From the NCBI RefSeq assembly GCF_964355755.1, contig NC_092671.1:15004001-15068000 (forward strand): a stretch of 64,000 bases of DNA. The letters run 5' to 3'. Within the stretch, counting starts at the first letter, position 1. Each line of letters opens with the position of its first letter. The position numbers and the translations under genes were made by a program. Below the pieces are notes generated by a model, which was given only the letters and a program-made list of their open reading frames with translations, was not told the origin of the DNA and made no database searches. Below, in pieces: positions 644 to 61,818 of the stretch. The stretch is from Antedon mediterranea (taxonomy: Eukaryota > Animalia > Echinodermata).

Positions 644-16444
<15,801 letters not shown>

Positions 16445-17321
16445 GGGTAGGCTACAATATTGTCACCCACCTGTCATAGAGTCAGTTACCGATAATGTTA
16501 TATTCCATCAGTCAGTCTACAGCTTATCGTACAATACATCAATTACATTAAGTAAACTCTTTAGTAATTAATTTTGTCAGAGCCGCTATGTCTACTTATT
16601 TTAACATAATCCTCAAAAATGATCGAAAGTGCGAAGTTTGTGGTTTACCCTATTATCCTAATTCAATAAAAAATCAAAGAACAGTTTTACAGGTTCCATG
16701 CTGATTCTAGCATCACGTTCATGGCACGACAATCTAAGTTACAATCATCGGAGTCATACGGTATATTACCGGTATATCTTGGCGTCTTTGGCCGAGATTT
16801 TGTTTTTAAATTAGAGGAAGAATTGTTGTTCCGAGTTGAACTGCAAACTTTAGCTATTTATGCCTGTGGCAAACATTTTAACAGGATACCAATATTTATA
16901 TTTTCCATTGCTGATTCGATCCGAGACAATTTTTAAATGACGTCACCACTTTGATGATTAATTTACGAAAGTTATTATGATTGTAGTTGTTGCAATATAA
17001 TTTGGGTTTATCACAGTCATCATTTTGGTCATTATCTGAATAATGATAATAATATCTTATCATTCATTAAAGATATATTGTCTCCCTAAAAAAAAATAAT
17101 TGTTTAACATTTTTGTGTTGAATTTGCCATTTAATGTCACATAATGGTTATTCACTTTGACCAAAAACTTGACCGAAAAAAAAAATTATTTTCCTAAACA
17201 AAATGCAATTTAAAGTAAACAATTCCTAAATTGTCTTTCAGACAAAGGTTTTTGGTTAAAATTACCCATTTATTTTGTCTTTTTATAAGTGAAGTAATTT
17301 GTTGATTATTTTTATTATATA

Positions 17322-17851
17322 AACACAGCAGGCAAAGAACATTAATTCTAAACCACCCGGTGATATACTGAAATTTAATTAATTAATTTGAAACGATAAA
17401 GATGAGGAAATCTGTGAGAATGAGAAAAAGTCGCCCCAACCGAGACTCGAACTCGGACCGTCTGCTTGATATGCAGTTGCCCTAACCATTAGACCACTGG
17501 GGCTTTCATGGTATTGTTCAAACTCGATTGGATAGCGACTTTTTAACATTCTCGGCGTGGTACGGCGGAACAGCACTAGTCCTCAGTTGTACGCACGCGC
17601 AACAGAGATCAAATTGATACCCCCTCATCTTTCAGTATTTTTATTCACGAGGCGGGATCTCCAAGGAGATACTTTTTATATATATAAACACAGCAGGCAA
17701 AGAACATTAATTCTAAACCACCCGGTGATATACTGAAATTTAATTAATTAATTTGAAACGATAAAGATGAGGAAATCTGTGAGAATGAGAAAAAGTCGCC
17801 CCAACCGAGACTCGAACTCGGACCGTCTGCTTGATATGCAGTTGCCCTAAC
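17322..17851 (-). mobile_element. Non-autonomous retroelement-like insertion: one full 365-bp unit plus a 5'-truncated tandem copy, with 18-bp TSD
   Basis: 17322-17486 is repeated at 17687-17851 (period 365, short TA run at the junction). Direct repeats GATTATTTTTATTATATA lie at 17304-17321 and 17852-17869. Confidence 0.8.
17432..17503 (-). tRNA. tRNA-like cloverleaf (anticodon loop ATATCAA, nominal Asp-ATC; probably not a translational tRNA)
   Basis: Minus strand GCCCCAG TGGTCTAATGGTTAGGGCA ACTGC ATATCAA GCAGA CGGT CCGAG TTCGAGT CTCGG TTGGGGC G. It has a 7-bp acceptor stem, A and B boxes and a perfect T-arm, followed by a T5 run. A partial second copy lies at 17797-17851. Confidence 0.7.
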
Positions 17852-20800
17852 GATTATTTTTATTATATATATGAATAACTTTATTAAAACTGCAAAATGT
17901 TTTATTCAAAATCTGATTTTATTAATATTTATTTTTTATTATTTTATTTATATTTTTTTGGTGCAATACATCTTTAAATATCGCTATTGCTTTATTTATT
18001 AGAAGACTTCTATTTTTAAGATGTTGTGATTGTTTTCTAATGTAACGCCTTCTATGCTTGAATGAATTGTTCCTTTTCCTTCTCGAGAAAGATTAAGTTT
18101 GTAACACTTCATTATTAGCATCGCATAATCTGCTAATCGTTATTTATAATAATTCCCTACATCATGACAAGGCCTTTATGAAATATAACATTGTAATAAT
18201 ATTCGTACAAATGAAGCTACAGCAGTCAAAATAAAAGAAACGAAGCATGACGTTAAGGTATTTTGTATTTAATTTATAAAATAACAAACAGCACACACAC
18301 CGGGCGGTACAAAATCTGGTCATCATCTTAGGATGATCAACCGATAAAATTACAAGCTTTTAAAAATGCATCAACATGCAAGAAAATATACTCAGAAAGA
18401 AATCAAAGTGACAATATAAGTGTACCATCAATATAACGGTACTTTATAAGCTAGTTATTCAAGTGATCATTCATGTCAAGTGAATATTATCTAAAGACGG
18501 AGGCAGTGTAACGCTGGCTTTAAACTTGTCACTGACGTCACCACTTGTAAAAACACTAAATGTGAACGTGATAGATAAATAAATAGATAGACGTAAACTT
18601 ACAGTATTGATTTCTCTTAAATACTAACTGTAGAAATAAATAACTTTATATAATATAAAAGAAATACAATAGCTTTAAATTTACCAAAATTATTTAGTGC
18701 TTACAACATTTTTTTGATATGCAACTACACGTTTAGATAGAAGTATAAAGAACACTCAATCGCAAGACGAACAACATTTCATTACACAAATTTATACACG
18801 TCTAGTGTGGACAAAGCGAACATTACATTTAGTTTTTATTTTATGCGGCTCTCTCGATACGTGCCTAGGAGGTCACAAGCATTGCATTAGACGTCTGGCC
18901 TGCAGGTTGCAATCAGATTTCTCAGGCCTAGGCCAAGATTAAAAATAATCATCTGAGGATAGTTTCAATAATAATCTGAAAGAACCTTAATTTTTTTTTG
19001 TTTATATAACTTTTTTTAAATAATTTTAAAGATCAAAAGTAGGCCTACATTACGATAACAATAATTGATGTCGTTGTAGGTAGACAATAAGTTCAATTAA
19101 TTAATTACAAAAATTCAACTACTGATTGGAGAACACTAATCGCGTGTTCAGTAGTTCGCTAATACGTTTTTTTTTATTAGAGCAGCTTCATGTTGACTTA
19201 ATAGCTTTAAAAACAAATTTATGTCATGTTAGTCTTGTTAATAATCTAAAGGTGTGTTAGTGCAAGTAACTTGAAAGTATAATTATTAAGTGGTTTTCAA
19301 CTCTTTAATTATACACCAAAAATGCAAGGTATTTAATGCTTAAATTTACTAAGTACTAACTACCATAATCTTTTGTGGTCTCAATCCCATCAAATATTAA
19401 TATCGTATCTGTTGATGTATCACAAAAACAGAAAGAAGACAAACACAGTTGATTGTGTTGTAAGAAATCATTGTCATAACTGATATGTCCGCCATAACTA
19501 GACCGTTTATGATTACGATAGTTAGTAGTGCAAGGTGCAGTTACGTTCATTTTTGAACGACTTTTATTAAACTTTACAGATTATCATGATACCTAAAAGC
19601 CTAAGCGTTATGTGATGTTAGTACTATTCTAATTGTATTAGTAGGCCTATAAATATTTTTAATTTGCAATTAGCGGTGCATTTATGTTAGCAAAGCATTA
19701 GGCGTAAGTATAACTATAGCTAAGGTTAGTAAATATGTTATGTTACCTGGTGCACCGTTGTGTACATATACTGTGCAAGTGGTGTTAGTTTTACATAATT
19801 TTTGTTAGTAGATTTTAACATAGAACAGCATGTTAAGAATTTAATCCAAAGTGGTGTGTTACTACGATTTTAGTTTCTGTAGGTGTTATTGTGGGTTGTA
19901 TTAACTGCATAGATACAAGTGCTTCCTTAATGAAAATAATTGATATCATTTTCGTTAGTTTTTGCTATAGGTGAGTATTATAACCATTGTACAATATTAG
20001 TTAATTTGCTTTTATTTAGCAAGTGCATAGATCAATGATATATTATGCAACATTTCCAAAATTGTTCCCATTGTATTGTTGTATTAAGCGATTGACTATA
20101 ATTTTTTGATGAATTTCCAAAATAGTATAAACTTCAAAAGTGTGATGGTAAGTTGTGATGAAATATATTTCTGTTAGTGCATGTTAAGGTGCCTTGTTAA
20201 CTATTTTGATATTTTTTTATTCACAAAACGTGTATAGTAAAATTATCAAAACGTTATGTTAGAAAAAAGCGAACGCAGTTATATAACAAGTTAATTTGAT
20301 TGTTTTGCGCATCTTGAGCGAGTTCAAGAAATCTGATCTCTATCCGTCACATATAGAATAGTATGCAGCATTCGTAGTGGTACACGTTTACTATTATTGC
20401 AGAATACATTTATATAAAAACATATATATCAAAATATTAAATATTCATAAATAATACTTTTTTTTTCATTCTAAATACCAAGCGTAGCGAATTAAATATG
20501 TTATAAATATTAGTATTGCTCTAATTCTATAATTACTAGTTATATTAAAACATTTATGATTATAATAAGTTAGGAAAGAAACACCAGTCTCGCAGATTTT
20601 GTTGCAGACAACTCTGATATTGGAAACTTTCAGGACAACCATTTACTTTTCGAAAATGTAATTGATTTATTGTTCAATGTGTTACCTTCATCGTGAAGCA
20701 CACTGTTGTTTGGTACTGTAAGAAAGATTCTATATCTAGTCGTCTGCAATCCGCGTGTGACCGGTGGGTTTAATAAGACAAAAAAGTGAAACAACACAGG

Positions 20801-21967
20801 ACGCGATGCACTGACAAGGTTAGACAAAGATGTGTGCATGTACAAGTTGTGCTGTGCAAAATTAGTGACTTTAAACTGCAACCTAAGTTGCAAGCTACCG
20901 CCACCAACGACATTAGTTTTCTGCCACCATTGCTAGTCTACCGCCACCAACGTTTTAATATTTAAAAAAAACAATGCACATTAAATACGACACTGTATAA
21001 AAAAATATAATATTAAATAAGTTTAAGTTAGTGTCCCATTGTCTATTATTGGATTAGCACCCATAAACTACCATTATTCAAATTTGATAGGCCTACCCAA
21101 AACCACCTTTAAATTATTATTACAAAAAATATGGAAATTAGTTTAAAACAACCTAGCCGATTAAACCGCCGTACTGTAAACATAGTTTGTTATAAAATTT
21201 AAATATACTAATATAGAACTGACAGTACATGCATTTGATGCAATATAGAGTAAATAAACAGGACGGAGTGACGCAATCGACATAAATGTACACATAATTA
21301 CAAAACAATATTAATACTCATTTACAGTTTGTTAATAAATTTGGCTATTAGAAAATTATAAATATGATACTGATATTACTGATGTTATTTAAGCTTCGGA
21401 CCCTTCTTGTTTTAGCTAGGATTATATATTAGTCTTGAAGACTGCTTATTTGTTTCTGATGGTGATATCACATATTACTGGAGAAGAATTGCGGTTATTT
21501 CTAAAGAGGTGTTCCCTCGTAAGGAGAAAACACTGAGCGTCAATAATTTGGCAAACATTGTTTTGTTCATAAAGAGAGAGAGAGAGAGAACTTTGGTTCA
21601 TTCTAACTTTGGTTACTGTTACGGAGTCTGGAATGTTTGTGCCTATAATCTTCTATGTTTGATTAGAAGTAATAGTTGCATAGACCCTTTGCAACAGTAT
21701 CATGGCGATCCCTCCCATGTTAGAAACAAATAGCAGATTTTACTACATAATATAAAACATGCAATCAAAATGTTACATAAAAATAAGTTAAATCAACACT
21801 AAATATGATTTAGAGTATCTAACAAAAATGAGTTGTATTCAAAGAACTATTATCTTTCCTAAATGGAAAGGGTAAATGTTATAAAAAGATATACACACCA
21901 AGACGATTAGCTCACTGAAGCGGTTAGAAGCGGCAGGTCAGACGGCATAAGTAATTTGTTAGTTTTG

Positions 21968-24496
21968 TTATAAGGAGCAAGAAAGTTTTGACACGTGACG
22001 TTCATGGAAGTCCATGACATGTTGTGTATCTTTATTCCAGTCCACGACATCCTCCTTCTTCCATTCCTGGTCGGCATGTTCGCTGTTTGGTACAATCTGG
22101 TCACTATTCGTCGGCCTGGAAGCCGTTGATGAGTATTGAGGTTTGAATATTGCGCACCGACATGGTTTCAAAAGATGAGGATCTACTAGAACCTCCCCTC
22201 TGGGTCCTTTGAATATCGTTCCACAGCAGATCTTTTCCCTAAATAGTATTGAAAAGGTCATAATTTTACACCATTTCAACAACACAAAAATAAACTCTTC
22301 AGATACACAAAAGGCAAAAACATATCTCAGAAGACACCAGAAACAAATCTGGAGCGAAATTCACAAAAGGAGCATACTACGTATGATTCTAATTATTTTC
22401 TTATTGTTTCCACAATACAACTTGACGATTGAAAAGAAAGAAAATACTTACATTCTCCAGCAATTGATGTCTAAGAAATCCCTTACAGAAGGTGGGAAAT
22501 CGTGATCCGGATCGACGTTTCCTTCCTCGAGGTTTGAGCCATCTTGTCCATCATCAGAGAGATCACTTGGTGTTGGACTTGGTGGACAATTACCAATTCT
22601 GCTTTTATGTCGTACTGCATTTCCTAAACAATTCACGTATATCAATATAGAATTAAAAACAAAATTGAGAACTACCCCAAAGGGAATTGAACAATGGTTG
22701 TAGTGATGATACATTGTCCACAACATTACTTCAGAAGACTGTCGTTACAACCTCTTTGTATAATTTTTAGTTAATATTCATTATTACCTATATTTGGCCA
22801 GTATCATTAAAAATTCAAACAGAATGGAATTTGTCTTTACCTTCACTTTCCATAGTTAACGTATCCATCAATCTCATCTTTCGTATCCTAACCGGTTGTC
22901 TGCTAGGCCTGTGCTTTCTACTGGTTGGAGATCCGTTACTTTCAGTTGCCTGCGCTTTAGTCTTCATTCTATTCTTTAACATTGCTTTGTTCCCCGGCCC
23001 GGCGCGTGCATCAACCACCTGCCAATCAAACAAGAGAATTAACAGATTGAGAATCGGTAATTTCCAAGTATAATGTTAACAGTAATTTCAAGTTCAAGAT
23101 ATTGTTGTTATTTTTATATGATAAGTAAAGTCTTCATTTGGAAAATAGTTTACTTCAAACTCACAGTGTTCTTTTAAATAATATTTGCATTATTAGCATT
23201 TTGTAAGTAAAGATTTGCCAAATTTGACTTACATGGTTCCAGTTTCGTTCTGTTCCTTTTGGCAGCTTCTTCCATCGTTTTATGAGCAGTACGCATGCGT
23301 TACAGATCTCACCAGATCTCTTCTGATCTCGACCAAGTTTGAAACACGGGTTAAAATCCACTTCGTATTTCTTTGAATCTATAGGTAGAGATACAAACAA
23401 AATATTTTATTTAGAATGGTAAAATTAATGATAATCAATTCGTTAAAATCATTATCGTCATCATCAGTTTTGTCAATTTTATCGATACGATTTCAACGTT
23501 ATCAACAATATAGTTCGATACCACAGACCACCATACTTTAGTTGGCAATAATATTATGAACAACAACTAATAATATAATATTTCTGTTCCTTACAGGTGC
23601 CAAAACATATTTTTACAAATATTGGCAAAAATTAGAAATTATATTAGAGTAGAGGGTAATGTATGCCAATACTATCAGAAGTATGTAATATACGGACACC
23701 ATTTTTATTTTAAAACGACAACGCTCAACATCATCACACCGTTCTCCTTTCTATGAGTAATACATTTTAATGTGGGAATGAGTAACGTGATGGAAAATCC
23801 CGTTTCACGTACAGTTACGAATGGGTCAGAAACGGATGATGACGATGATAATAATTAACAGTAATATACATGTGATTATTTTTTAGCATATATTTGCTGA
23901 GTACAATTGATATTATTATTAAGTGAACCTTATGAATGTGGATTGATGAATTAACCACGCCCATATACATTGTTTGCCCATTGAGGAAACATTTTACAGG
24001 GACAAAGGCATATTCTAAAGGGCTTTAAAATGTTGAACTATGATTATTTGATTATCAGATATATAGGGAATGTTTATAGATAGAATGTTGTACGGTATCT
24101 TATTACAATAATCAAAAAGATTGTTGGTAAATAAAAAGAAGGATTACCGTATTGCATACAGGAAATTTGTCTATAATGATCAATTAAATTGGAAGTATCT
24201 TTATTAATTATTTGAATGGTATTGAAAATATTTGTCAACTTCGAGATGGGGGAGATTTCAATCTTTCAATGTAACAACGGCGAGACAAATACAGTGAGGT
24301 AAATATATACGACGGTTTAATTATTAAAAAAAAAGATACATTTGCAATCTGTGCAGTGTAACATCCATATTACTAAAACGAGAGAAGAGGTAATGAGCTG
24401 CTACCTACCCGTGAACCGAGAGCTCGATGACTTTGCCCGACAAATGCAACATCCCTGTATACTCCTATATATCTTAGGCTTATGGAACGCAAACAT
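21968..24496 (-). CDS. SINHCAF: SIN3-HDAC complex-associated factor (FAM60A family)
   Basis: Exons 24409-24496 (MFAFHKPKIYRSIQGCCICRAKSSSSRFT), 23233-23378 (DSKKYEVDF..RSGEICNACVLLIKRWKKLPKGTERNWNH), 22841-23018 (VVDARAGPG), 22452-22623 (SPTPSD..FLDINCWR), 21968-22238 (EKICCGTIFKGPRGEVLVDPHLLKPC..stop). All junctions are GT-AG and in phase, and the motifs are hallmark FAM60A. Confidence 0.95.
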
Positions 24497-28796: not shown

Positions 28797-29565
28797 GGAA
28801 CAAAAAGGATGATTACTCTGTGACGTCGGTATAGAGGAATTATCCACTATAATTTAATTGACGCATCCGCTAAAGTAAACATATATCAATACTCTAGGAA
28901 ATTAGTGTAGATTTCACAGGATTTTATGAATTTTAGTTAATTGTATATTATTGATTACACTGACAAACAATAGATTATTATTTTATTAGGCATTATTACT
29001 TCTACTTTCAAATATGTTTGTGTATTTTCTTCTTCTGTTATTTGTTATTGTTATTATATATTCTTAATACTGTTATAGCCTCTTAAGTCAAAGACTCAAA
29101 TATAGAACAATGAGTTTGTGACCGTGGCTGTGTGTGAACTATATACCACCGAGGTAACCCCTACTCGTCTCGAAAGATGTACTAGGTACTAGTAGTATGA
29201 CATGAACCAGATGTGTACACATGACCTACTGTTTATAGTACTGTACTTTACAAGAAGACTCGTTTACCACCAGAACCATGGAGCGAGTGAGCATTGAACC
29301 CTTGTAGTCCGGTGGCAGGAGGGGGATATCACCACCCGAAAGGGTACAAATAGCCATCCAACTTTTCTAGACCAGAATTTTCCGTAGATTACGAATATGG
29401 AAGGTAATCGATCAGGATAGGAAGCGTTTTCGAGATATAAGGGGTCAAAGTTCAAAATTGACCAATTACAACAATATACTGTATTGTGTATATGTATTAT
29501 AACAAATTTATTGAAGCACAATTTAGTCTTTTATTACATTTTCAAGATTATAGGTCTCTATTTAA

Positions 29566-30097
29566 AGATGTATTGTCCCTTTGTCAAATTAAAAAAAAAA
29601 AAAAAAAAAAATTCGAAAAAAAGTGGGTCATTTTGAAGTATCATAAAAGTTATTAATTTTCACCAAAAATGAGTCGAAAAAAAAAATCATTTAACTGAAA
29701 TACAGACGTTTTTTGGTTCAAAAATTAACTTTGACTTCCAGTCAAAGTTTTCTATCAAAACATATCTCATAGTGCAACGCGCTTGTTTGGCTACTATGTA
29801 TGCATAATCATAAAACTTCCTCACGATCTGTGTGAGAACACCTTCTCATCCGTGACGAGTTGTAAACAATCCTAATTAGCATCATGCATAATGTATACTC
29901 ATGGTTTGAAATCTTTGTTTACTTTCGCTTGGGACGATTATCCAGACGAAATGTAATCAAATTAATTTAGCTGTTAATTACGTAAAATTGTTGTTTTCGA
30001 CTTAAGGTGAATAACTTTAATATTACTTTGATATGGCCAATTTAAATTTAGAGTATTTTGACCTTCATTTTTTTGTTTTTTAAGGGACAATACATCT
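29566..30097. mobile_element. Kolobok-like MITE nested in the left TIR of the Academ-like element
   Basis: TTAA|AGATGTATTGTCCCTT...AAGGGACAATACATCT|TTAA. Removing it restores colinearity with the right TIR (about 33365-33415). Confidence 0.8.
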
Positions 30098-30288
30098 TTA
30101 ATCACCTTATGAAAAAAAAATCCGTTTGTGATTAAGGGTCAAATGTCAATATTGACCAATCATAGAACGTACCTATAGTCCGGCAGCCAAGGCGTTTAAC
30201 CTTGCAATGTTTTCTATAGTTTTTTTTTTATGGATTTTGATTCTCGATACCATCAGAATAAAGATTTTTTTACTGGACGGCTGTCAGC

Positions 30289-30532
30289 ATTAAGCAATTT
30301 GCATAATTAGCATAAACAAAATGGCCGCTATTTTTTTTATATAACATGCTATATCGCTGGAAATACTGGACGTAATGAGATAATTTTGGTGTCAAATTGT
30401 TCACAATGTATTAAGCAATTTGCATAATTAGCATAAACAAAATGGCCGCTATTTTTTTTATATAACATGCTATATCTCTGGAAATACTGGACGTAATGAG
30501 ATAATTTTGGTGACAAATTGTTCACAATGTAT
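30289..30532. repeat. 121-bp tandem duplication
   Basis: ATTAAGCAATTTGCATAATTAGCATAAACAAAATGGCCGC... starts at 30289 and again at 30410; the two copies are near-identical. Confidence 0.9.
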
Positions 30533-31189
30533 ATATTTATATTAGCTCTAACATAACTTTCTTTGTAAAATTGACCGGAAACCCCATTTTTAGCAATTTT
30601 GACCTTTGACCTCTATTTGCTATATCTAAGTAACTGCAGGTCGGAGAGAATTAAAAATAGGAGCACATTGTTCCCAAGATATACATTTATATTCAGTGTA
30701 ACAGATGATATTGCTTGAAAATGACCGGAAGTGTGGTTATTGACCTTTGACATAATTGAATAAGGTTATAATAACATAAATTAATAAATATTTGTCTTTG
30801 GGAGCCAATTTTTGTGTCAAATTATTCACAATATATATGTTTATACTTGCCATAAAGCAACATTTTTTTCAAAAAGTGACTGAAACACCTATTTTTCTGT
30901 AATTTTAACCTTTGACCTGTTTTTCTCATCTAAATAACAACATGGCATAGAGATTTCTAACGTTTATAATAGATATTTTTATTCAATCTAATAGATTAAC
31001 TGTTTGAAAAATACAAGTGTGATTGTTGCTTTGAAATCCTGTACATAAGAGCCTATCGGGGCGGATTTAATTCAAAGACGTGTGGAATCGGAAGGGGAAT
31101 ACTACTACTACTACTATACAGTACAATGTCTTTGAGATATGTCATTCAGGTATCCATGTATCTCTAATTTAATGGAATGTACGGCTCAT

Positions 31190-32275
31190 AGAGAATCCAG
31201 AAGTTACCCTTGGTTCATTTTGGCAAATCCATATGGGTTCCTTTTAAAAGGATTGAGGGTGCACAGAGACAGGCTTTTCCCATGGCTTAATCTTGGAACC
31301 CACAGTTTTAGTTACCCGATATATTTCTAACAAAGTAACTTAAATGTAGCCAAATGCATTGATCCGATGCAGGAACCAGTAGAACCACAGAAGGGTCTAA
31401 ATAGATGACCTGTTGTTTCATTTTAGGCAAGATCCATATGGGTTCCTTAAGGATCGAGAGTGCACAGGCAGCTTTATTCCATGTGCCTGTCTATATAAAC
31501 CCACATTGTCACCCCTTATATTTCCATTATGGGGCTTAATGTCCATGGAGGACCGGCCCTTGGGGGTTATTTTGGGCAAATCCATAAGTGTTCCTTAAGA
31601 ATCGAGAGTGCACAGGCAGCTTTATTCCATGGGCCCTTCCTGTCTATATATGAACCCACAGTGTCACCCATTATATTTCCATTATGGGGCTTAATGTCCA
31701 TCCATGGAGGACCGGGCCTTGGCTTAATTTGGAAAAATCCATAAATTTTCCTTAAGGATCGAGAGTTTACAGGCAGCTTTATTCCATGACCCGCGCCTGT
31801 CTATATGAACTCACAGTGTCACCCCTTATATTTCCATTATGGGGCTTAATGTCCATCCATGGAGGATGACCGGCCCTTTGGTTAATTTGAGCAAATCCAT
31901 AGATGTTCCTTATGCATGATCGAGAGTGCACAGGGATATTTATTATATCTCTATGATTCCACATACAGTATTTCCAATAATATAGGGTCTCTTGTAGCCT
32001 CACATAGAGAACCACAAAAGGTCCTTGAAGGTCGGCCCTTGGGTTCATTTGGGCAAATCCATAAATGTTATTTAAAGATTGAGGGTGCACATTTAGTTTT
32101 ATTCTATAGTTCATCTATGAACTATTTACCCCATATTAATTTATAATACACGGCCTTATGTAGCACACCACCAGGGAAGGGGTAAGTATATATAGAGTTT
32201 CCAAAAGGGTCCTGGGTTTATTCGGACAAATCCATATTGGTTATTTTAGAATCCTTTGTGTACAGGCAACTTTTT
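31190..32275. repeat. Degenerate tandem repeat of about 150-157 bp inside the TIR element
   Basis: Recurrent GCAAATCCAT..TTCCTTAAGGATCGAGAGTGCACAGGCAGCTTTATTCCATG and TTTCCATTATGGGGCTTAATGTCCAT blocks; the best copies start near 31427, 31577, 31735 and 31891. Confidence 0.8.
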
Positions 32276-35200
32276 CCTGTATGGGCCAAACTATCTGTGG
32301 CTATATAAAAATTGTGGTCTGTCTGTGTAGTGAGTTGTGGATTGAGTTTGGCCACCTGGATCTGCCTATGCCCATCCTGTGGACGAATTGGTATTCTTTG
32401 GTTCTGATGAATAGTACTTTATTTTCCAAAAACGAATATTGTAGCCCTAATAAATGCAACTGTGTAGTGGCAAATCATTGAAGGTCAGCGTAACAATTTT
32501 TAAACAATATTATGATGATAAAACATCATAATATTTTAACCGTCATAATATTAATTTTATTATTTATTTTACAGTATTATAATACATTAAAAATAATGCG
32601 CACTAGAAAAAATACCATAACTTCACTGATCAAATAACGATCGATCTCATAGTTTGAATAACTTTGCATTATTTAGTATTATCACTTGTTCAAATGTTGA
32701 CCTTTGACCTATGTCAACTGGTGTAATGATGAATGTGCTCCGTTGATTGTGTATGATTGATGTCTTAACAGAATGATAAACATAACATTTTGTCTTAAAT
32801 TTTAGTTTTTATTTGGTTTTTTATGCAAATTTTGCGATTGGTCAATATTGACATTTGACCTTTAATTGCAAAGTATTTGTTTTATAAGGCGACTGAATAG
32901 ATATCTATAACCATACAAATGTATTAAACGACCAAATTGAACTTCAATAATTTGGTTATAATACATATGTATATAATACATTGTTATAATTGGTCAATTT
33001 TGAACTTTGACCCCCTATCTCTTCCTATTCGCTTCCTATCATGATCGAAGTCTGATTTGAGTAAATACAGTATTATAATTATATTAATCAAAATTATAAT
33101 GAAATAACATATCTTTACTGATCAAATAATTTGATTAGGATACTTGTAAAACCATCAATATCATAGTTTGGACTACTTTGCATTTATTTGTTAACTAATA
33201 CGCGTATTAAAATGTTGACCTTTGACCTTATGTCAACTGATGAAATTGACCTTATGTCAACTGATGAAATGATGTATTCACTCTTTTACATTGCGTATGA
33301 TTAACAGGATGAGAAAACATCCAATTTTTATTAAATATTATTTTTTATTTGGTTTTATAGTATAATCACAAAGGGATTTTTTTTTCATAAGGTGATTGAA
33401 TAGACACTTATAATCATAAAAATGTAATAAAAGACCAAATTGTGCTTCAATAAATTATATTGTTGTAATTGGTCAATTTTGAACTTTGACCCCTTATATC
33501 TCGAAAACGCTTCCTATCCTGATGATCGATTACCTTCCATATTCGTAATCTACGGAAAATTCTGGTCTAGAAAAGTTGGATGACAATTTGTCCCCTTTCG
33601 GGTGGTGATTCCCCCCTCCTGCCACCGGATTATTGCCGATGTTTGTAAGATGCACTATTGATGTGACGTGCCACCGATAAAATAAATAAATAATTACTTA
33701 ATGTATTAGGCGTTCCATAACGTTCAAATGAAGTTAGTTAAAATATTTTGAAAACTCCGACAAAGCATCAAAAGCGGGACCTTCCCGCCGAGATTTGAAC
33801 CGTTGGAACCTATGTACTACTGGCCATTAGTTTATATTAGGACATTCCAAAATCAATATTTGAAAAAAAAAAAAATTGAAAAAAAAAATGTTTTGAGAAT
33901 ATCAGTTTATAGATTGATGTCCTGATTTCTAGTCTAAATCTCTGTAGAATAATAAAATATACAATTGGGTTTTACTATTTTATTAATTCATTTATGTGAT
34001 AATTATTGCAGAATACTGTATAGTAGGCCTACTTATATCCAATACGTAGATGTATTGTCCTCCAAAAACATGAACAATGAAGACTAATAAAAACAAATAG
34101 GTAATCAATTCCAAAAAAAAAAATGTTTTCACGGTTAAATTTAACCAATTAATTTTTACTTTAAATTACAGTTTTTTTCAGGTAAATAATTTTGTTACGA
34201 TCCAATTTTTTTTTCAGGGGACAAAACCTGATTTTGTTTCCTCATCAGAAAACGATGTAAGCAAGAGAGGGCGATATTCAGATGACAAAATTGTTATTAT
34301 GGGATATTCTAGCAATTTCATGTACGCCATTTTGAAATATGGACGTTAATGTTTCCCGCCTTACCTCTGTAAATTAATTGAAACTAGCAACTTTTAAGTA
34401 ACTTTTAGGACGGTCTCGTGAGCATAAATACAAGAAGGGTATTTTAAGATTTGGGAGAGATTAACTTTATTATGTAATAGCAGTCGAGTAATTGGTAATC
34501 GACATTTAAAAGCTGAACTATCAACCTCGTTTGAGGGGTGTGATTTGAATAACGTTGGTAGACCCACACGGAAAACGCAAACATTCTAACTGTTGTTTTT
34601 GTACATCTGGAAACACAATCTAAACTCGATTTTACCCATTGTAAGTGATGATTGTTAATATGTGTTGTATGTGTTATCCTGTCCAAATAAATGGTGTAGG
34701 CATGGGTATAATAATAAGCTAGAGAGAGAGTAGGTACATAATAGGTAGACTAGCAAGAAGGGCTATAATTATTTTTCCGAGAATGTCAATTTATTATAGG
34801 CTAGGCCTAGCCTAAAGGGAAAGAGGAGAGCGCGTGCCGTGTGTAGCCTTTTAGAGGAGGCAGCGCATATAATATAAGCCTAGCTAGTAAGTAGGATCTA
34901 TGCATACCTCCTAGGCCTAGCTAGTAGCAGGGTTACCTGCTTGGTTGGTTAGCCTGCTGCAGCAGTACAGTAGTGTGGAAGGCAAGTAGCCTAGCTAGCT
35001 AGGCCGGGCCTAGCTAGATACTCTAGGCTAGCCTGGTTAGGTATAGGTAGGCTGTATGTGTAGTGAGTAATTAGATTAGTAGTATAAGTAGGCCTAGGTA
35101 GTAGTAGGAAAGGGACTACAGTAGAAGAAACAAATAGAAGGTTTACATTTACAACAATCAATTGTACTATTAGTTTGGGTAATGTCTGTATCATTTGCAT

Positions 35201-39700: not shown

Positions 39701-42700
39701 TGCTAAGTTGGTAAAGGTACGCATGTATTTGCAGTAGGTGCTATAGCAAGTTTTACTCAATATTCAATTTGGAAACCATTGATGCTTGATTGTAATATAG
39801 ACGATTGGTGCATTGACTTGTTAGAGAGGAAGTGGGTAGTTTACTAGTAAGAGCTATGAGTCATCTGGCTGGTAACTACCCTAAGTAATCCACTACAACT
39901 TGTTAAAGCTTGCATTGCAAACAGTTAGTTTGAACTATTCTGGTTCTCTACTGACATTTAAAATTGTGAAATGTGTTCATTTTGATAATTATAATGCAAT
40001 TTTAAGAGGATTCTAAATGTGTAATAACTGTTAAAAGGATCCACAGTACACTATACAATGAATACTGTATAACATAAACATGACTATTTTAAACCCAACA
40101 CCAACTGACATATCAGGTGCTGTATATGGAGCTGGGGTCCCTTTAGGCATTTGAAATCAGCAATGCTGACTCTTTCTTATGGCAGCCCCTGCATCTAGTA
40201 TCTGCCTCAGATGTATTGGCCCATGCCTTTCTTCTGGTCAAGGTGGGCACTGGACGAGAGAAGCCCTTGATCAATGTTGGGACCAATCAAGGTGCTTTAA
40301 ACAGTCCTGGCTTTGTTTGTATCAAACCTGTTAGTGGCGGTAATTATCGCTGTTGGTTTCGATTGAATAAAATGAAAAAATTGAGGCCTGGGATAAAATT
40401 GTATTGACATATGTGCAGTTTCTTCATCCATTTCACACGTAATGTACTGTATGTGTCGTAAATGATATAGTGTTGTTCACTTAACAAATATGCTTATGAA
40501 AATGCATTTCAATTATTCAACTTCTTAGCTAAGCATAACAAGTTTTATACAGCATGTACTGGACATTCATTGCACTTGACTTATTTGATTATAACAAATT
40601 ACTTAATTTTATATTTATAATTTTATATTTTTCAGTCTCTGTCAAATCAACTGTGGAGTTTCCTTGACAAAGAATCACCCTTGAATCCACTTTTAGCAAG
40701 TTTCTTTAGCAAAGTTATCTCAATCCTAATTACAAGGCGGCCCGAGACGGTTGTGGAAAAAATTAAAAACAAGGAAAACTGTATTGGCGTTTTTCTGAAG
40801 CATTTTGGTACGTCTGCAATTATGGACCTTCTACTAAGGCTTGTCACTTGCATAGAAGTTCCAGAACTTAGGAATGACTTTTTAGAAGTAAGTGAACTAC
40901 TCTATTATCAATATTGTTTTACCATTTTTGGCACCCACTCTAGGAGTGCATTCAGGCTTATTTACCTGTGTAAATTGGTGACTTAATTTATCCATGAGGC
41001 CACCATAAAGCCATTGTTAAATGCATAAAGATACCAAAAATAAAACAATAATATTTAATTACCAGACATTTCTACAGTCTTCTTGATATATCTGTAATAC
41101 AAAAATGATTAATTATTTCCTGAGCATTTTTTCCTTGTTTCACTTACCATGGGCTAAAAATAAACTGTTTTATGAATATTGTAAATCTTAAAATCCTTTT
41201 GTATGGCATTGTTGGATTCTACCGGACTTAAAATAATCTTTGGTTTTATGGAATATGCCGTATTCAGAGCGAAAACATTGTTATTTTTTGTAATTTAGTT
41301 TCATCACTAATAATATGTAAACAAAAATAAATTATCTGAATGTTACCATGAATGTTAAATAGAGGTTTCAAATTGCAAGTGTTCTCAATGTACTTAGTAT
41401 AAAGTACAAAATTATGTCAGAGTAGGTCAAACAACTGATTGATTACTCAAATCTCTTATGCAAAGCTACTCCACAGTAGTTAAATACAATTATCATTATA
41501 CATATTTTTAAAATGTTGGCTTTGCCTTTTGTTGTACTGTGTTTTAAAAATGTTATGCTTTTCATTTAGTGGTTAACGAATCAGAAACTTATACAACGTC
41601 TGGTAGATCAAGTGGATCCAGAAGAAGATGATAATAAACACAGCAACGCATCACAAGCTATTGTCGATATCATTCGCCTTACAAGAGAACACATGTCCCA
41701 ATTACAGGAAAGCGCTGAGGTGGATCCTTTATTGAGTACAATAGAAAAGTAAGATTTTATAGGATATTTTAAAACTTCTAGAGAGTCAACTAAGCGAAAA
41801 TGAAGTTAACTGGGCAGGGACTCCACCTTAAAATGGCCATTTTATTTAATAAAATTAATCTATAATAATGTGAAGAACCACAAAAAATAAAAATAATTTT
41901 TTTATATTATATATACATTATATTGTAATTAATAACATGAATAATGTCTTGGTAAAAATCTTAAAGTATGTGTTTCTACAGCTATGTAGTTGTGTCCTGC
42001 GATGTGAAAACCCTATTCTCTCAGAGCCATCTTCTAACATTTTCAATGTTTGCGTTTTCAGGGAAGAAACTGTAGCAGAACTTCTTGAACATATGTTTCA
42101 TGAAAAGAAGTCAGAATCTGCTTTAACTAATGGTGTTACAATTTTATTGGCACTCTTGGAATTCAGAAAGTCAGGGTGAGTTATGAAATTCTGGAAGCTG
42201 AAATTACTCTTTACCTAAATGTGACTTTTCATTGAATCATTGAAAATAAATCTGAAATTCATCAATTTACAAATGACTAATTACAGTACATTTTGTAATA
42301 TTGGGACTTGCTGTGATCTCGTTATTATATAATTAATAATTATATAATTAATCTAATTTTAATTTACTTAAAATTATATACATTTTAGTTAATGTAAATA
42401 ATTTTCTTGAATAGTTTATAAAAAGTCCATATTTGTATTATTTTGCCCATTTTAAAATGATTACTAACAGTAGTAGGCCTTCTTATGTGGACTTTTACAG
42501 CCCGGATGGGCAAGAGCAAATGACGCAACTAGATGCGGAGCGACTGGCCAAAGGTATTAGCGGTGTCTTGAAGGGATTATTACCAAAGCTCTGCCAAATC
42601 CATGATATTTTAGTAGATCCACCAAAGGTAGGTGATAATCTTATTAATCCTCCTTAAAGGCCCTTTCGTGTCTGTTTAGTTTTCAGTTATATTTACAATT

Positions 42701-45700
42701 TGTATTTTTTTTTTACGAATCTACTTTGCATATTGGCTATGCCAACATCACACATTAGTCAGCCACTGATCATTTGTATCTTTTACTTATTGACTACAAG
42801 CAGGTGCAGTGGAGGTTATACACTGGTCAATTATAATATTCAATATCAATAAAGTTATGCATTAATTAATGAAGTAGCTATTTATTTAATGAGAGCAATT
42901 TCCATCTAAACTATCTTTTTAGATACTAGGTGTGAATGGCCACTAGTTAATGGATATTAAAATAATGGAAAATTATTTATATTACCAATTTATGTGGAAA
43001 AACTTGCAACTCTCAAGGTGTACTATGTAATGAAGAATAAATACTGTTTTTAAATCAATAGATCACTGTTTATAAAGCAATGTATTAACATTAATTGCAA
43101 TAAATTAGGCTGATATTGTGCATCCTAAAGTAGAATTTAGTACTAAGGATCAATTTAAAAAGTTAAACAGCTATCCTCAAGCTGCAACATTATTTATAGT
43201 TTTATATTTGTGTTTGAAAATGCAGAATTCCAAACTAGCACGGTGTAAATAAACATTATCTGGACAAATCATTAATATTTGATCATGTTTACCTTGTATT
43301 TTTACATTTGATAGCGCAATTAATTGTGGGAAAAAAGATTTTGGCCAATTGGAAATTTATGATTCTTCAAAATAAACACTAAAAATATTATCATTATTTA
43401 GTAAATTGTGAAAAACAATAGATTTATGATACATAATTGTAGATTCAAGATTTAGTTTAATTTGCCTTTATTGCAGCATCCACCAATGCCTACAACTACG
43501 GGCCAGTTAGATCCACCATTTGGAAATTCAAGGCTACAAGTCTCAAAGCTTATAGCATCGTTACTGGTAACCAACTCACCATTAATAAACAGTGAACTTA
43601 GCAGGTTGGGAACAATGAAAGTTTTATTGGTAAGTTTTAATATAAATATAGTTTCGAAATTAAAGAAACAAACATCGGCTTCCCAGAATATGTACATTGT
43701 ACAGTTTCTGGATGGCCTGCTTGTCTTTTTCTAGGTGGGCTGGTCTGGATGTCCAGTTTCTGGATAGGCTGGCCTGTATGTCTTGTTCTAGGTGTTTAAG
43801 TCTGGATGGCCTGGTCTCTTGGCTGGTCTGGATGTCTTTTTCTAGGTGGGCTGGTCTAAATGTCTTTTTATAGATGGGCTGGTCTGGATGTCCAGTTTCT
43901 GGATGGCCTGGTCTCTTGGCTAGTCTGGATGTCTTTTTCTAGGTGGGCTGGTCTGAATGTATTTTTATAGATGGGCTGGTCTGGATGTCCAGTTTCTAGG
44001 TGGTCTGGATGTCCAGGTTCTAGGTGGACTGGCCTACAAGTCCACTTTCTGAATGTCTGGTTTTGAAGGAGTTGACAGCTATCATTAATTATTTTCTTTT
44101 TCTTTGTAGGACCTATTCTTTCAGTATTTGTGGAATAACTTTTTACATTTAGAAGTTGAAAAGTGTATAACAACAATACTCAGCAATAACCCTGTTGAAA
44201 CAGATGGAGAAAAACCTCAACATCCTCTATTAGTTCAGGTATGTGAAATGTTCCATCATTTGCTTAAATCAATCATTTACTGCCTATTGCTACTAGCATT
44301 TTGTCTTAAATTATAATATCCCTATTTTAAGTAATGTGTGCAGAAATCATGTTATAGAAATTCCCCATTGAGAAAAAAAATATTTAACATATATAAAATA
44401 CAGGAAAATACATATTCCATTCCACTACTTTCACAGGGATCACCTCAGATGTCGCATTGTCACATTTAAGAAAAGGTGACATAATATATTTGTGGTCTTG
44501 TATTTGTTTGTAACAAGCTTAAGTATTCACATTTTAAGTGCATAGTGTTGCTAAGTTACTCATTTTATCATGACCATGATTTGTCTTGACAGTTATTCAC
44601 AGATTGTAGGCTAGTTCAACGAATACTAGACGCGTGGGAAGAGAATACACAAATACAATCACAACCTGGGGGTAACAGGCGGGGGTATATGGGTCATCTG
44701 ACTAGAATTGTTAATGCACTTGTTGAAAACAAGGAAAAGGGAAACAATAGTGAACAAATTCAACAGCTTATACAAGGTTAGTAGTATTTTCATGGTTTCA
44801 ATCAGTTTCTTCTACCCAGCCTATTTGTTAATGTCTCTTAAAAATACGTTTTGCAATTTGTATTAAAAGTGCTTCTTATTCAAAACCAAATTAGCTTAGA
44901 CTAAGTAAACAATTGTTTCAAAAATGATATATAAATAATACGAATAACTCAACATAGTGCTTAATAAGTGCTTATTTAAAATTATATTAAGTATACTACT
45001 GTCAAATCTTCAAGCCCAACACCCACCCACCCCCAGTTCTGCAGTAATTGACTACATATGATTATATGCTTTTTCCCCTTTAGAGCAAGTACCTGAAGAA
45101 TACAGAGAAAAGTGGGATAATTTTATAGCTAATCAACTAGCAGATACAAATAAACGAAATACTGTCGATTTGGTAAGTTTGGATCTATGCAAGTCCCCGT
45201 TATCAGTGACTATAATTAATGAAGGAATTGTTTTTAAACATGTCCTACAGTCAGTTACAGTACCGGACAGAATTATTGCAGATTTTGAACGCATTCAACG
45301 CATTGTTAAAGTGTTGACAACGCGTTGAAACTGCGTTGTCCGTTGGCGTTGAAAGTGTTGAGTTCGTTGAACTGTTTATTCAACCAACACAATGTGTTGC
45401 GTTGAGTTTGCGTTGAAATAACGAACAATCGGATTCGTATGGTATTTACAGATTGCCAGTGTGTATTAGTAGTAGTAGTAATAGTATAAAATACAGTATT
45501 ACAAATATTTAAGAAAACAAACAAAATGTGTATTTTTCCGCGGAAACCTAGCTTAATATATTACACTAGGCTAGGCCTACTACTAACGAGTAGGCCCCGT
45601 GTGTATATGAGCCGCGTCTGCCATCGCAGTTAAAAGTAGTGGTCATGTCCTTAATTACTGTGTGCCTATATTAACTGGAGTATTAAATACCAAAGTTAAG

Positions 45701-48700
45701 GCGGCGGTGAATCTTGGAGGCTAGGTCACATCGTAATTAATTATTTCCAAACTAAAAACTTCGCAGTACTGTACTACATTTTTCTCGATAAAAACAACGT
45801 AGCCTACACCCGCCGCCATGGAAGGCAACAATACATCACCAACATAACGATCCAGCATGGTCGTCGTCTTTTTCACGCATGCTTTTCGTGACGTGAGGGA
45901 CGAACTGATCGAAAGGTGAAGAGTTCATTCATTATGAAATAACGCGTAATTAAAAGGGAAAAAAATCGTTTAGTTTTATTATTATCCATAAATATATCAT
46001 TATCATGTATTATATTATAAATTAATTATTGTGATGCCTAACGTAACCCATGCAGAGAAAAGCGTTAAATATAATAACCAAGAAATAGGAATGACCAATT
46101 TGATGACAATAGGCAATTTTAGGCGTTTTCTTTAAAATCAAAACCTGTGCCATACCATATTATTCACGCCAAGGTGTAACCCACAAATATTTGAATAACC
46201 AAACAATTCAGAATAAAGAACCACTTTATTCTGATGCAAGACAATATATTATTACAGGCGAGGTTTAGGCGTTTTCTCTTTAACATACTATTGTTTTGTT
46301 TCTTAATATAATTATATTGGCCTCCTCCTGAAACTGTATGAATGGGATGGGAGTTGCGAGAATATGCGAGCGAACAGCCAACATTTTAATCAGTTTACAG
46401 TGTGATGCTTTTCAAAACGCGCAACGTTTTCAACGCGTTCAACGCTATGGGATTCAATTGTTTAACGTCGTCAATGAACGGTCAACGGGTTCAACACATT
46501 CAACACGCTCTATTGTTAACGTATTCAAAACGCTTTTTGTACTTAAAAATGTAATGTTGTTCGATTTATAAAGATTTAAATTGGTTCATGGGTGTCGGAC
46601 ACGTCAAATTTTTTAGTTCTTTCAAATTACATTACAACAAACAATGGGACAATTATAAAATAAAAACCAAAATAGAGAAACAATATTTTAACTTTATCTC
46701 TTGAATCTCGAACAGCTAAAAAATGTAGGCCTAAATAAAATTAATTACTTCGTCGTCATTAACGATCGTTAAATACGTCATAACACACGTGGTGTTTTTC
46801 TTGAGGAAACCAGGGTGGCGGCCTCGTGTGTTGATGTCAGTAATTTCCACGTTGTTTGATTTTACGACGTGAGATTGTGTTTTCCCCCGGAAGGCCTACA
46901 GTACAGTGTTAACTGTTAGACTTGGCATCGACCTTATTATTCTATGTTTTCCTTCACTAAACACTGGGAAATATCACTGTGTGTTTTATTTGGTGACTGT
47001 CCGTTCAATACTTAAAAATATATCTAAGCTTCATATATATTCTTTATTTATATTAAAATATCTGGTAGTGACTGCCGATAGGTATTTTGCCTGTTGTTGT
47101 TACTGATCGTTCAGGCGTGCAATCGGCCAGTCTAGAGTGCTGCAGCAGCTAGCGTTGAAATAACTAATTGTTTACTTGACATGCTGATAACGACTTTCGT
47201 TGAATAAACAACTAAACGTTGAAAGCCGTTCAACGCAACGCAAACACAACGCAACGACAACGTGTTGAATGCGTTGGGATTTTTGCAATAATTCTGTCCT
47301 GTACTGTAAGAAAACGCACAACAGGATATGCTGTATCAAACCACAACATAGTATAGGACATTAATGATATCAGTAACAAATGTTGTAATTATACCATTGA
47401 CAGGTTGGAAGCCATCCATTGCATTCATCAAGTGAAGATGATGACTCAGATTTTAAAGATATTCATTTTGGTCAAGAGACTACAATGCAACAGGTAGGTA
47501 GAAATAAATGTACTATAAAAATGTACTGTATTTATTATGTTATCCAAAGACAGTTGAATATTTTCATGCATATACAAAATCAGCATCGTCCGCAAAACAA
47601 ATGACTTGAACAAAAAATTTATTAATAAAATATAATATAATATTAAAACACCCAAATTGTATAAAACTATAACAATAATTAATAGTAGAAAAAAGGTACT
47701 ATTTAAATAGTGCGTACTATTGCACACAGTGTGACCCACAATCATCCAATCAAATGACAGGAATTTATTTAGGTGTTATATAATATGAACTAATCATCGC
47801 TTTGAATAGTCATGCAATCAAATTGAACTGTCTAGTCTTACAAATAAAAATAAATACACAGTAAATAATATTTTATTTACACTGTATGAAGCAGTATAAA
47901 CAGAAATTGTAAACCAAACAAATGTAGAATAAATATATTTTGAAGTTATCTTTAAATTGAATGTGCATTTGCTGTTGGTTAGCAAAGCAAGAAAGTACAT
48001 CAACGATCTGGCCTTGTGTCTCACTAGCCACATGATTCATTTTAATTGGCTGTAGTTATTTCAGTTTTACAAAAATATCTCTTCCTGTCAAAACGCCTCA
48101 TACTAATGATTCACTTCCCTGCTTTTAAATATTTATCAAATATTGTCTGCCAATAATAAAACTTGCATTATATTGAATCAACTAATTTTTTATGTAAATG
48201 TTAATGTAATTGTTTGTAATTTTGATAAATTACCTTATCATAACTTAAAATTAATTAATTTAAACATGTTGATATTAATTTACTTAATTACATAAATAAT
48301 GATTTTATTATATTAAAGTTGTCTGTCATCATAGAGCTCAATAGAGTAGATAGACTGTTATTACTTGAAAAGGTTATATGAATACTATCGCATAATGTAC
48401 ATGCCGAACTGCAATTTATGACCACATATAAAACAATTTAGTGCCAGTGATTACCAAAATTATTGTACATACCCTGGGCTTACAGTGTTTTAATGAAGCC
48501 CACAAATAAGACCAGTAGTGTAATGAGTAGCTCCTTATTACGTACAAAATGACTTTTGGTCTGCTACGTCAGGCCTTCTCCGATTATCAGATGCAACAAA
48601 TGACGTCCCATTTTATTGACCAGTTCGGCTTCAATGATGAAGAGTTTGCAGAGCAAGATGAGAATGTCAAGTAAGTAAATTCATTAATATTTTTTCCCCA

Positions 48701-49338
48701 TTTCTTTTTTATATTGTGGTATTTTTTGTTTTAGACTAGAATTCATGCATTAATAATTTATTTCCATTTCAAAGCACCCTACCATTTAAAATAATCAATT
48801 GCTAACAACACTTTGCAAGTTCAACATTTTCATATTTACAAATGGAATAAAACAAATCAAATATTACATCTGATATCTGTATACTTATATATAAATATAT
48901 ATTTATTTTCCAACTGAAAGATTAAAAAAAAATAAAGAATCAGAATGCATTTACTACAAATTACAATTATGGTGTAGCAATCTATTTCTTCTATTCCTTT
49001 AATGGGTGGGTTTTTTTGTACACTTTTTTAAAATTATATTTGGCTATAGATTGATTGTCATATTGTCTTTGCCCTCTTCTGTCTTTGTTATCTACTTATG
49101 AACTATATCTCATTAGTGTCACTTACATTATTTTATCGTGATTATCATAATTCAGTTATATATATATATATATATTGCACTGATGAAGGGCTAGTGTTAC
49201 CCGAAAGCTCTGCTAACTTTTCTGGCTGTTTACTTTATCGTTTTGATTTAGCTTTTCGCTTTTTATTTTTGTATCTCCATTGAGATCCAGCCACTGATAC
49301 CCACAGCATTGTCATTTTTTTCAGTAATTTGCCTTTGG

Positions 49339-49397
<59 letters not shown>

Positions 49398-60828: not shown

Positions 60829-61818
60829 ATTGGTAATTTATTTTTTGTCTTATATAGCGCCTAATACAATGTTTCTTTACAAACAAAAATGATCCATAAA
60901 ATATTCTAAAATAACCAAAAAAAAGGAAGCATTTTCACCGCTCCGTTCTCCAGCTCTTTGAAGCTCCCATGGGAGCTCGCTGGAACAGTATTCACAGGAT
61001 CTTAATTGAAATAGCATCTGTCTATCCTATCCTACTGTACCAAAATTTGAAGATTATGTCTATTGTGATTTTATCATCATTATTGAACACAGTAGCAACT
61101 AATTCAATTGCATTGTTATTAGCATCAAACAATTTGTGCAATCTCCAAATATACATTACTATATGGTGTGGTGATAGTAATACTTCCTTCTGTAATGCCT
61201 ATAAACACTATAGCTTGCCAACTGTATAATAATAATAATTTACCCAGTGATGATACTGTACTATACACTTCACCATTAGACCAGTGGGATCTTTGATAGT
61301 ACAGTAGGTTCAAATCTGATAAAATTCAATTCATTTTAATTATGTAAAAAAAAAGTGACTCGACAGTTACTTCTGTTTACCAGCTACATTAGGCTTACAA
61401 AAGCAAGCTAGGTTAGGCCGTCCACGAGAGGACATTCAACTCGAGCTACTTAGGTAGTGCATTGTTTCTCTCTTTTAATCATAATTCACCATAACATGTA
61501 CATTTAAGACAAGGAATGACCTGGATTAATATTATTTTAAAAGTAATGTATGCAATTATTTGTACAAAACGTCCAATATTGTAGGGAATACAGTAGGTCT
61601 TTAACAAAATGTAATAATATTACAGTATTAATTATTATCCTACTCTTTTTCGTTGCTTTGTTAATGTTACACAGTACAGTGAATAAATAATGAATGATTA
61701 TTGTTTTGTCTTTACAGGTAAATGAGATGACTTTGATTATGATCAGCATTTAATAAGGAAATCTTCAATAATAACAACAAACTAAAATCTATCTGCTTTT
61801 GTTCTCACTATTGTAAAA

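Follow-up and report, generated by a model that had tools for sequence, protein, structure and literature searches.

The 64,000-nt stretch of the Antedon mediterranea genome analyzed here (NC_092671.1, positions 15,004,001 to 15,068,000 of the forward strand), hereafter the window, carries at 17304..17869 a short, recent insert with a tRNA-like sequence inside, located between a receptor-kinase gene on one side and a FAM60A gene on the other. The initial annotation, made from the sequence alone, had described an 18-bp target-site duplication (TSD) enclosing about 1.5 tandem copies of a 365-bp unit, and both points stand. The direct repeat bounding the insert is exact (17304-17321 and 17852-17869), and the 530 nt between its copies amount to 1.45 units: 17322-17686 is a complete unit of 365 nt, and 17687-17851 repeats 165 nt of it, matching 17322-17486 at 165/165 positions. 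The RNA strand of the element is the minus strand, the unit being read from 17686 to 17322; it has a GC content of 42%, and no ATG-started open reading frame (ORF) in it exceeds 56 residues. The target is an AT-rich 18-nt site with a terminal (TA)3 and not a TA array; its likeness to the TA linker of the element beyond (TA)3 is not special, 20 of 316 TATATA sites being equally good. The features of the element, in window coordinates, are the following.

17304..17321, no strand: left TSD copy, an exact 18-bp repeat facing the RNA 3' end, with the terminal (TA)3
17322..17686, minus strand: full 365-nt unit, from repeat comparison
17672..17686, minus strand: TA linker at the head-to-tail junction and putative priming site (sequence; junction spanned by 4 of the 21 element pieces listed from the contigs described below)
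17655..17671, minus strand: 5-bp hairpin in common with a TA-flanked piece at 49175-49341, the majority letters giving a C(UUCG)G loop (0/1000 shuffles)
17516..17655, minus strand: 3' half copied in inverted orientation, in degenerate form (1/1000 shuffles)
17553-17516, minus strand: antisense arm, 34 bp with 17452-17416 in the predicted fold
17432..17503, minus strand: tRNA-like cassette with an ATC anticodon, A box at 17496 and B box at 17452 (ARAGORN, Rfam)
17424..17428, minus strand: T5, resembling an RNA polymerase III (Pol III) terminator and paired within the antisense helix (sequence, predicted fold)
17322..17423, minus strand: 3' tail with its terminus at the TA target (contig loose ends at 17677)
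17687..17851, minus strand: upstream copy, 5'-truncated and resembling a pseudo-long terminal repeat (pLTR), the break falling within the D loop of the tRNA (same sequence as 17322-17486)
17852..17869, no strand: right TSD copy (exact 18-bp repeat), the 5' junction showing an imperfect microhomology of 4 nt
1647..1674, minus strand: second copy in the window, last 28 nt only, with TA runs on both sides (22/28 identical; apart from the element itself, the closest match in the window)

Four public runs supplied the contigs placed on 17001-17900: X3, from organism A and possibly the window's own sample; X5, from organism A in another study and only guessed to be RNA; X6, from organism B; and X10, from organism C. 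Contigs fitting the duplicated part number 5,498 in X3, 3,872 in X6, and 636 in X5; X10 gave a single contig, in the flank only, and the gap there proves nothing. In X3 the depth summed over the unit is 1-2 million, compared with 256 for the sole unique-flank contig; relative to the single contig at 17001-17030, it is 4,000-12,000 times higher, a figure that is not a copy number and is read here as "thousands". The element belongs to a high-copy family with thousands of variants in two organisms. From 3' to 5', the summed depth, which adds both places of the duplicated part, declines from 2.97 million (17331 end) to 1.07 million (17631-17660) in X3 and from 1.73 to 0.84 million in X6, with no step at the start of the tRNA (1.99 vs. 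2.06 million in X3); it drops to 0.29 million at 17663, where poor contig placement near the TA linker may contribute. In the 17421-17450 bin, which holds tRNA position 58, the depth falls and no pile-up of ends is listed, and the depth of X5 relative to X3 is ~3 times higher over 17361-17450, a lead only, as contigs cannot rank the parts of a stretch. The 3' end (17687/17322) is entered from other flanks via a TA run by 67 contigs in X3 and 57 in X6. Among the longest 21 element pieces, which are those listed (26,487 more lie beyond), seven exit on the 5' side, at 17500, 17522, 17538, 17626, 17658, 17748, and 17763; four, all from other loci, span the head-to-tail junction with 31 letters or more on either side and differ from this locus at 15-21 letters. 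The element derives from a minus-strand RNA with a TA-anchored 3' end and a 5' end truncated at variable points. Numerous copies with variable 5' truncation had been foreseen by the initial annotation, which had set against its own proposal copies starting at the tRNA as in an ordinary short interspersed element (SINE); one of the seven exits lies there. Its TA targeting holds for the 3' ends found elsewhere, but the present target is only AT-rich, ending in (TA)3.

The two copies at this locus share letters that are in the minority among the contigs, namely A at 17355/17720, where G makes up 92% of the depth, and G at 17693, corresponding to 17328 of the full unit, with A or T making up 89%. 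Together with the single TSD and the identity of the two copies, these letters indicate that both were made from one template in one event, and hence that this template continued beyond the 3' end and across the TA linker, as a multimer or a circle. The insertion target is an older high-copy repeat (17061-17303 and 17870-17900, depth at most 1.4 million in X3), other copies of which join 17288-17302 to 17872-17877 with ~15-35 other letters between them in the examples shown; since these copies are devoid of the block, it represents an insertion into the older repeat. A 20-nt pattern scan of viral sequences returned 0 loci, and the one metagenome locus it gave was rejected as a chance match in AT-rich DNA where the similarity ends with the pattern.

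ARAGORN reports an Asp(ATC) tRNA-like sequence on the minus strand at 17503-17432, matched by the Rfam tRNA family with 52.4 bits (E-value 2.2e-8 in a search of the whole window). It starts 173 nt downstream of the TA run and is directly followed by the T5, the sole run of at least four T on the minus strand of the unit, in line with the internal cloverleaf and terminator recognized initially. The A and B boxes are intact by the usual consensus patterns. In the copy at this locus the anticodon stem is topped by an A.A mismatch, and the majority letters across contigs restore the cloverleaf pair 27-43 and improve the D stem. Asp with an ATC anticodon is not known as a standard eukaryotic isoacceptor. 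Of note for genome annotation, thousands of such copies would inflate crinoid tRNA gene counts.

Folding of the 365-nt unit returns -113.6 kcal/mol (z -4.4, 0/100 shuffles as good), or -108.7 kcal/mol as a circle; 2 of 25 random window segments reach a comparable z, which is therefore not unique by itself. The four nested inverted repeats described initially are all present, matched at 17/19, 10/10, and 9/9 positions and over 8 ungapped positions for the 13/14-nt pair, the two middle ones overlapping at 17630-17632. The rod tipped by a folded tRNA that had been derived from them is, however, not what the prediction returns. Instead, 17553-17516 pairs with 17452-17416 over 34 bp (30 Watson-Crick, 4 G.U), in a predicted helix covering the T arm, the acceptor 3' strand, the T5, and the trailer; the acceptor, D, and T stems have a pairing probability of 0.0 within the unit, and imposing the cloverleaf on it costs 22 kcal/mol. 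The stem probabilities are also 0.0 in all five transcription prefixes holding the whole tRNA, and the cloverleaf is predicted for an RNA beginning at the tRNA. The antisense arm is thus predicted to mask the tRNA in any RNA that contains the 5' half. The whole of this 5' half matches the inverted 3' half in colinear order and represents a worn copy of it, and across the inverted arms G.U outnumbers A.C by 9 to 2 (p 0.03), which counts in favor of the reading proposed below; each half alone folds unremarkably (z -0.66 and 0.16). Variation was assessed on 13 letter changes in the unit, from the best 40 of 82 variant rows. Six of them fall at rod-paired positions, four keeping the pair (three by turning G.U into Watson-Crick), and two further ones hit the cloverleaf pair 27-43, both repairing it. 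Both folds, rod and cloverleaf, may therefore be maintained, although covariation is not established. In X6, variant units at 17531-17625 have 55 nt swapped for 21 letters or an internal duplication, and represent subfamilies that vary where the 5' half is looped out.

A hammerhead descriptor returned no match on either strand of the 530-nt insert and two elsewhere in the window, against a background of 0.13 matches per shuffled window. Rfam likewise reports no ribozyme in the insert, and it also missed both of these hammerheads; the absence of other ribozyme classes holds only within the reach of Rfam.

49180, plus strand: minimal hammerhead of the Penelope-like element (PLE) type, from the descriptor, in a 167-nt piece (49175-49341) with TA runs on both sides
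1574, minus strand: type I hammerhead with 5-bp stems I and II, from the descriptor, in a 205-nt piece (1428-1632) with TA runs on both sides

The 49180 hammerhead exhibits an extra nucleotide, a G10.1-C11.1 pair, and a palindromic stem III, the marks of PLE minimal hammerheads (PMC4209133), and the 49175-49341 piece is likely a shortened PLE pLTR. The 1428-1632 piece is retrozyme-like and adjoins the 28-nt stub at 1647-1674, and this side-by-side arrangement implies that one TA site took several insertions. The 5' end of the unit and the 49175-49341 piece, which was chosen by eye among ~21 TA sites, share a 22-nt hairpin region (0/1000 shuffles) that has these two matches only within the window; their stems agree and their loops differ. 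Three other candidates were rejected: an 11-nt motif occurring four times, in TA-flanked pieces only, was picked post hoc and is weak (50 and 96/1000 shuffles pairwise); a hammerhead-core heptamer in the 5' half of the unit lacks the stems and sits in the inverted copy; and a hammerhead-core-like motif at 4748-4800 (plus strand) failed the descriptor. The mobilization by PLEs proposed initially is therefore borne out in part, the layout agreeing with the literature and the hairpin being common to a TA-flanked hammerhead piece, but the link is indirect.

PLEs are recognized by partial tandems, 5' truncation, adjacent inverted copies, and a (TA)n bias, and non-autonomous PLEs with pLTRs exist (PMC8557442). 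In vitro, a purified PLE cuts AT-rich DNA and its reverse transcriptase (RT) starts inside a multi-copy RNA, ribozyme cleavage being dispensable (PMC11167929), and vertebrate retrozymes have been traced to PLE pLTRs (bioRxiv 10.64898/2026.07.22.740005). The element is therefore best read, with fair but not strong confidence, as a non-coding, ribozyme-free, tRNA-bearing PLE passenger copied from an RNA longer than the unit. Its 5' half would have arisen when a tRNA-headed repeat gained the inverted, 5'-truncated copy typical of PLE insertions. Since the T arm, the acceptor, and the T5 are masked, the RNA would escape tRNA processing, the 34-bp antisense helix shielding long transcripts from tRNA cutting and modification, and the cassette would serve mainly as a Pol III promoter at the DNA level. 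The T5 lies directly behind the tRNA and would be expected to terminate Pol III, which alone therefore leaves the unit-length RNA unexplained, contrary to the transcription of the unit envisaged initially. A Pol III run from the tRNA to the next T5 would give tRNA-started copies, and the flat coverage thus calls for longer multimers or circles. The template would preferably be a multi-unit read-through RNA from tandem copies, or else a circle. The PLE endonuclease would nick TA-rich DNA, and the RT would begin internally at the TA linker, copy one unit, and continue across the junction to a variable stopping point, so that a single TSD would come to enclose a partial tandem.

Several observations weigh against this reading. 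The clean 18-bp TSD is the norm for long interspersed elements (LINEs) and SINEs, and the TSDs of PLEs are often not discernible (PMC8557442). None of the 70 window ORFs matches the RT or GIY-YIG families, and no autonomous PLE was identified there. The hairpin region shared with the hammerhead piece spans 22 nt only, and lies at the 5' end of the unit but ~55 nt short of the piece's 3' end. Two of the six rod-paired variants break their pair, one of them in 98% of the depth, the 13 changes from the best 40 of 82 variant rows include no two-sided compensatory change, and the common variants repair the anticodon and D stems, suggesting that the tRNA shape may matter too. Among the 21 listed pieces, four also diverge on the 3' side and one, at 17500, ends near the tRNA start. 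Lastly, no strand-switch joint or 30-40-bp tail was found among 15 of 276 joints.

The TSD, within the 10-49-bp range used for RTE LINEs and SINEs (PMC13295347), also suits a SINE derivative with a 5' extension moved by a microsatellite-tailed LINE (RTE, L2, or Tx1), the tandems arising by read-through or template switching, as do the intact A and B boxes, the 5' truncation, and the junction microhomology. We regard such an origin as rather doubtful: the tRNA is internal, with no step in coverage at its start and a T5 directly after it, the head-to-tail junction recurs at other loci, and the only sequence that the unit was found to resemble is a TA-flanked piece with a hammerhead. A further alternative would be an element acting at the DNA level, that is, a terminal-repeat retrotransposon in miniature (TRIM) with tRNA-bearing long terminal repeats (LTRs) of the Helenus type, a miniature inverted-repeat transposable element (MITE) or Helitron, or a local tandem duplication. 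The 165-nt direct repeats around a 200-nt spacer do resemble an LTR-internal-LTR layout, and the LTRs of Helenus contain tRNA-like sequence (PMC10886601); however, the TSD measures 18 bp vs. 4-5, the 5' ends vary, the repeats do not end in TG..CA on either strand, and no primer-binding site (PBS) or purine tract lies at the spacer ends, which makes this very improbable. Hardly any credence is given to a functional tRNA gene trapped in a repeat, despite its Rfam score, A and B boxes, T5 trailer, and cloverleaf when folded on its own, in view of the thousands of diverged copies, the A.A mismatch atop the anticodon stem, and the non-standard Asp-ATC identity.

The remaining alternatives concern the RNA itself. 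The initial annotation had the monomer released by RNase P and Z, and a broader version, compatible with mobilization by PLEs, assumes that a transient cloverleaf forms in a multimer and is cut by RNase P, RNase Z, or the splicing endonuclease, the circularized monomer then being reverse transcribed by rolling. The ends left by RNase P and RNase Z are not known to be substrates of RtcB, which speaks against such a route, as do the stem probabilities of 0.0 once the 5' half is present and the 22 kcal/mol cost of the cloverleaf, which argue against simple release. Copying round a circle would account for the 1.45 identical units, but a tandem source fits this identity equally. In its favor, no hammerhead is present for the cutting, the majority letters favor pair 27-43 and a better D stem, the circular fold is stable, and animal retrozymes of similar size occur as circles, which RtcB ligates in vitro (PMC7229834). 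On balance, release by tRNA enzymes seems quite unlikely. Some probability, though a minor one, goes to an undescribed class of PLE-dependent small-RNA retroelements, a Penelope equivalent of SINEs and TRIMp3 elements, in which the tRNA and its antisense mask would form a two-state switch replacing the hammerhead, the masked state being a protected template and the unmasked state being cut by host tRNA enzymes and closed into a 365-nt circle.

Elsewhere in the window, a 1843-residue stop-free, Thr/Asp/Val-rich mucin-like exon (10010-15541, minus strand) is adjacent to exons for fibronectin III and a tyrosine kinase (1781-9523), the three together representing a receptor kinase whose stalk is very long and repetitive. 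FAM60A exons are found at 21910-23406 (minus strand), exons of a SAPS-domain PP6 regulator at 40621-53128 (plus strand), and a single-exon heparan sulfate 3-O-sulfotransferase, 78% identical to an Anneissia japonica protein and thereby marking the host as a crinoid, a feather star, at 61786-62958 (plus strand). A cluster of inverted and tandem repeats with 121- and 155-nt units, possibly nested MITEs, covers 29305-33632 and contains a 260-nt inverted pair (29305-29565/33396-33632).

The PLE passenger proposed here resembles several known systems and differs from each. Animal non-LTR retrozymes share with it a non-coding unit of 170-400 nt with a GC content below 50%, monomer and dimer tandems, a TSD longer than 4 bp, and a proposed dependence on PLEs, but carry a type I hammerhead in each unit, in place of which a tRNA and an antisense arm are found here (PMC7229834; bioRxiv 10.64898/2026.07.22.740005). 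PLE passengers such as the Chlamys-dependent MRC1, and the Naiad/Neptune pattern, likewise combine a partial tandem with 5' truncation and a (TA)n bias, their inverted shortened copy having a possible counterpart in the worn one built into the unit, and Naiads are also devoid of hammerheads; in contrast, the TSD is clear here, and the available text reports no tRNA cassette, mentioning only a Sec-tRNA (PMC8557442). The Schistosoma Sm-alpha and Sj-alpha elements are likewise high-copy, tRNA-derived, SINE-like repeats in the orbit of retrozymes, but they carry a hammerhead, and no antisense mask is mentioned in the available part of the source, whereas the present tRNA comes without hammerhead (PMC2770079). 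Helenus and TRIMp3 also place a tRNA-like Pol III promoter inside a non-autonomous, non-LINE retroelement, yet with true LTRs, a PBS, a polypurine tract, and a 4-5-bp TSD, all absent here (PMC10886601). As for tRNA-derived SINEs, the A and B boxes, the lack of coding capacity, the TSD, and the 5' truncation are shared, but here the tRNA is internal, with 173 nt before it, a T5 after it, and its own antisense copy upstream, and the junction recurs. The element thus fails the defining tests of retrozymes, SINEs, Helenus, and Sm-alpha, and works like a PLE passenger. A tRNA-bearing, ribozyme-free PLE passenger was not found in searches of the open literature, and may sit under another label in Repbase, Dfam, or subscription journals, which lay outside the search. 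SINEs ride LINEs and TRIMp3 elements ride LTR retrotransposons; a tRNA-bearing PLE passenger would, if true, fill the third slot, and would represent retrozyme-like amplification without a ribozyme, which bears on the open role of hammerheads in PLEs. With its defined ends, the 365-nt template would also lend itself, as a compact substrate, to the in vitro assay that exists for PLEs.

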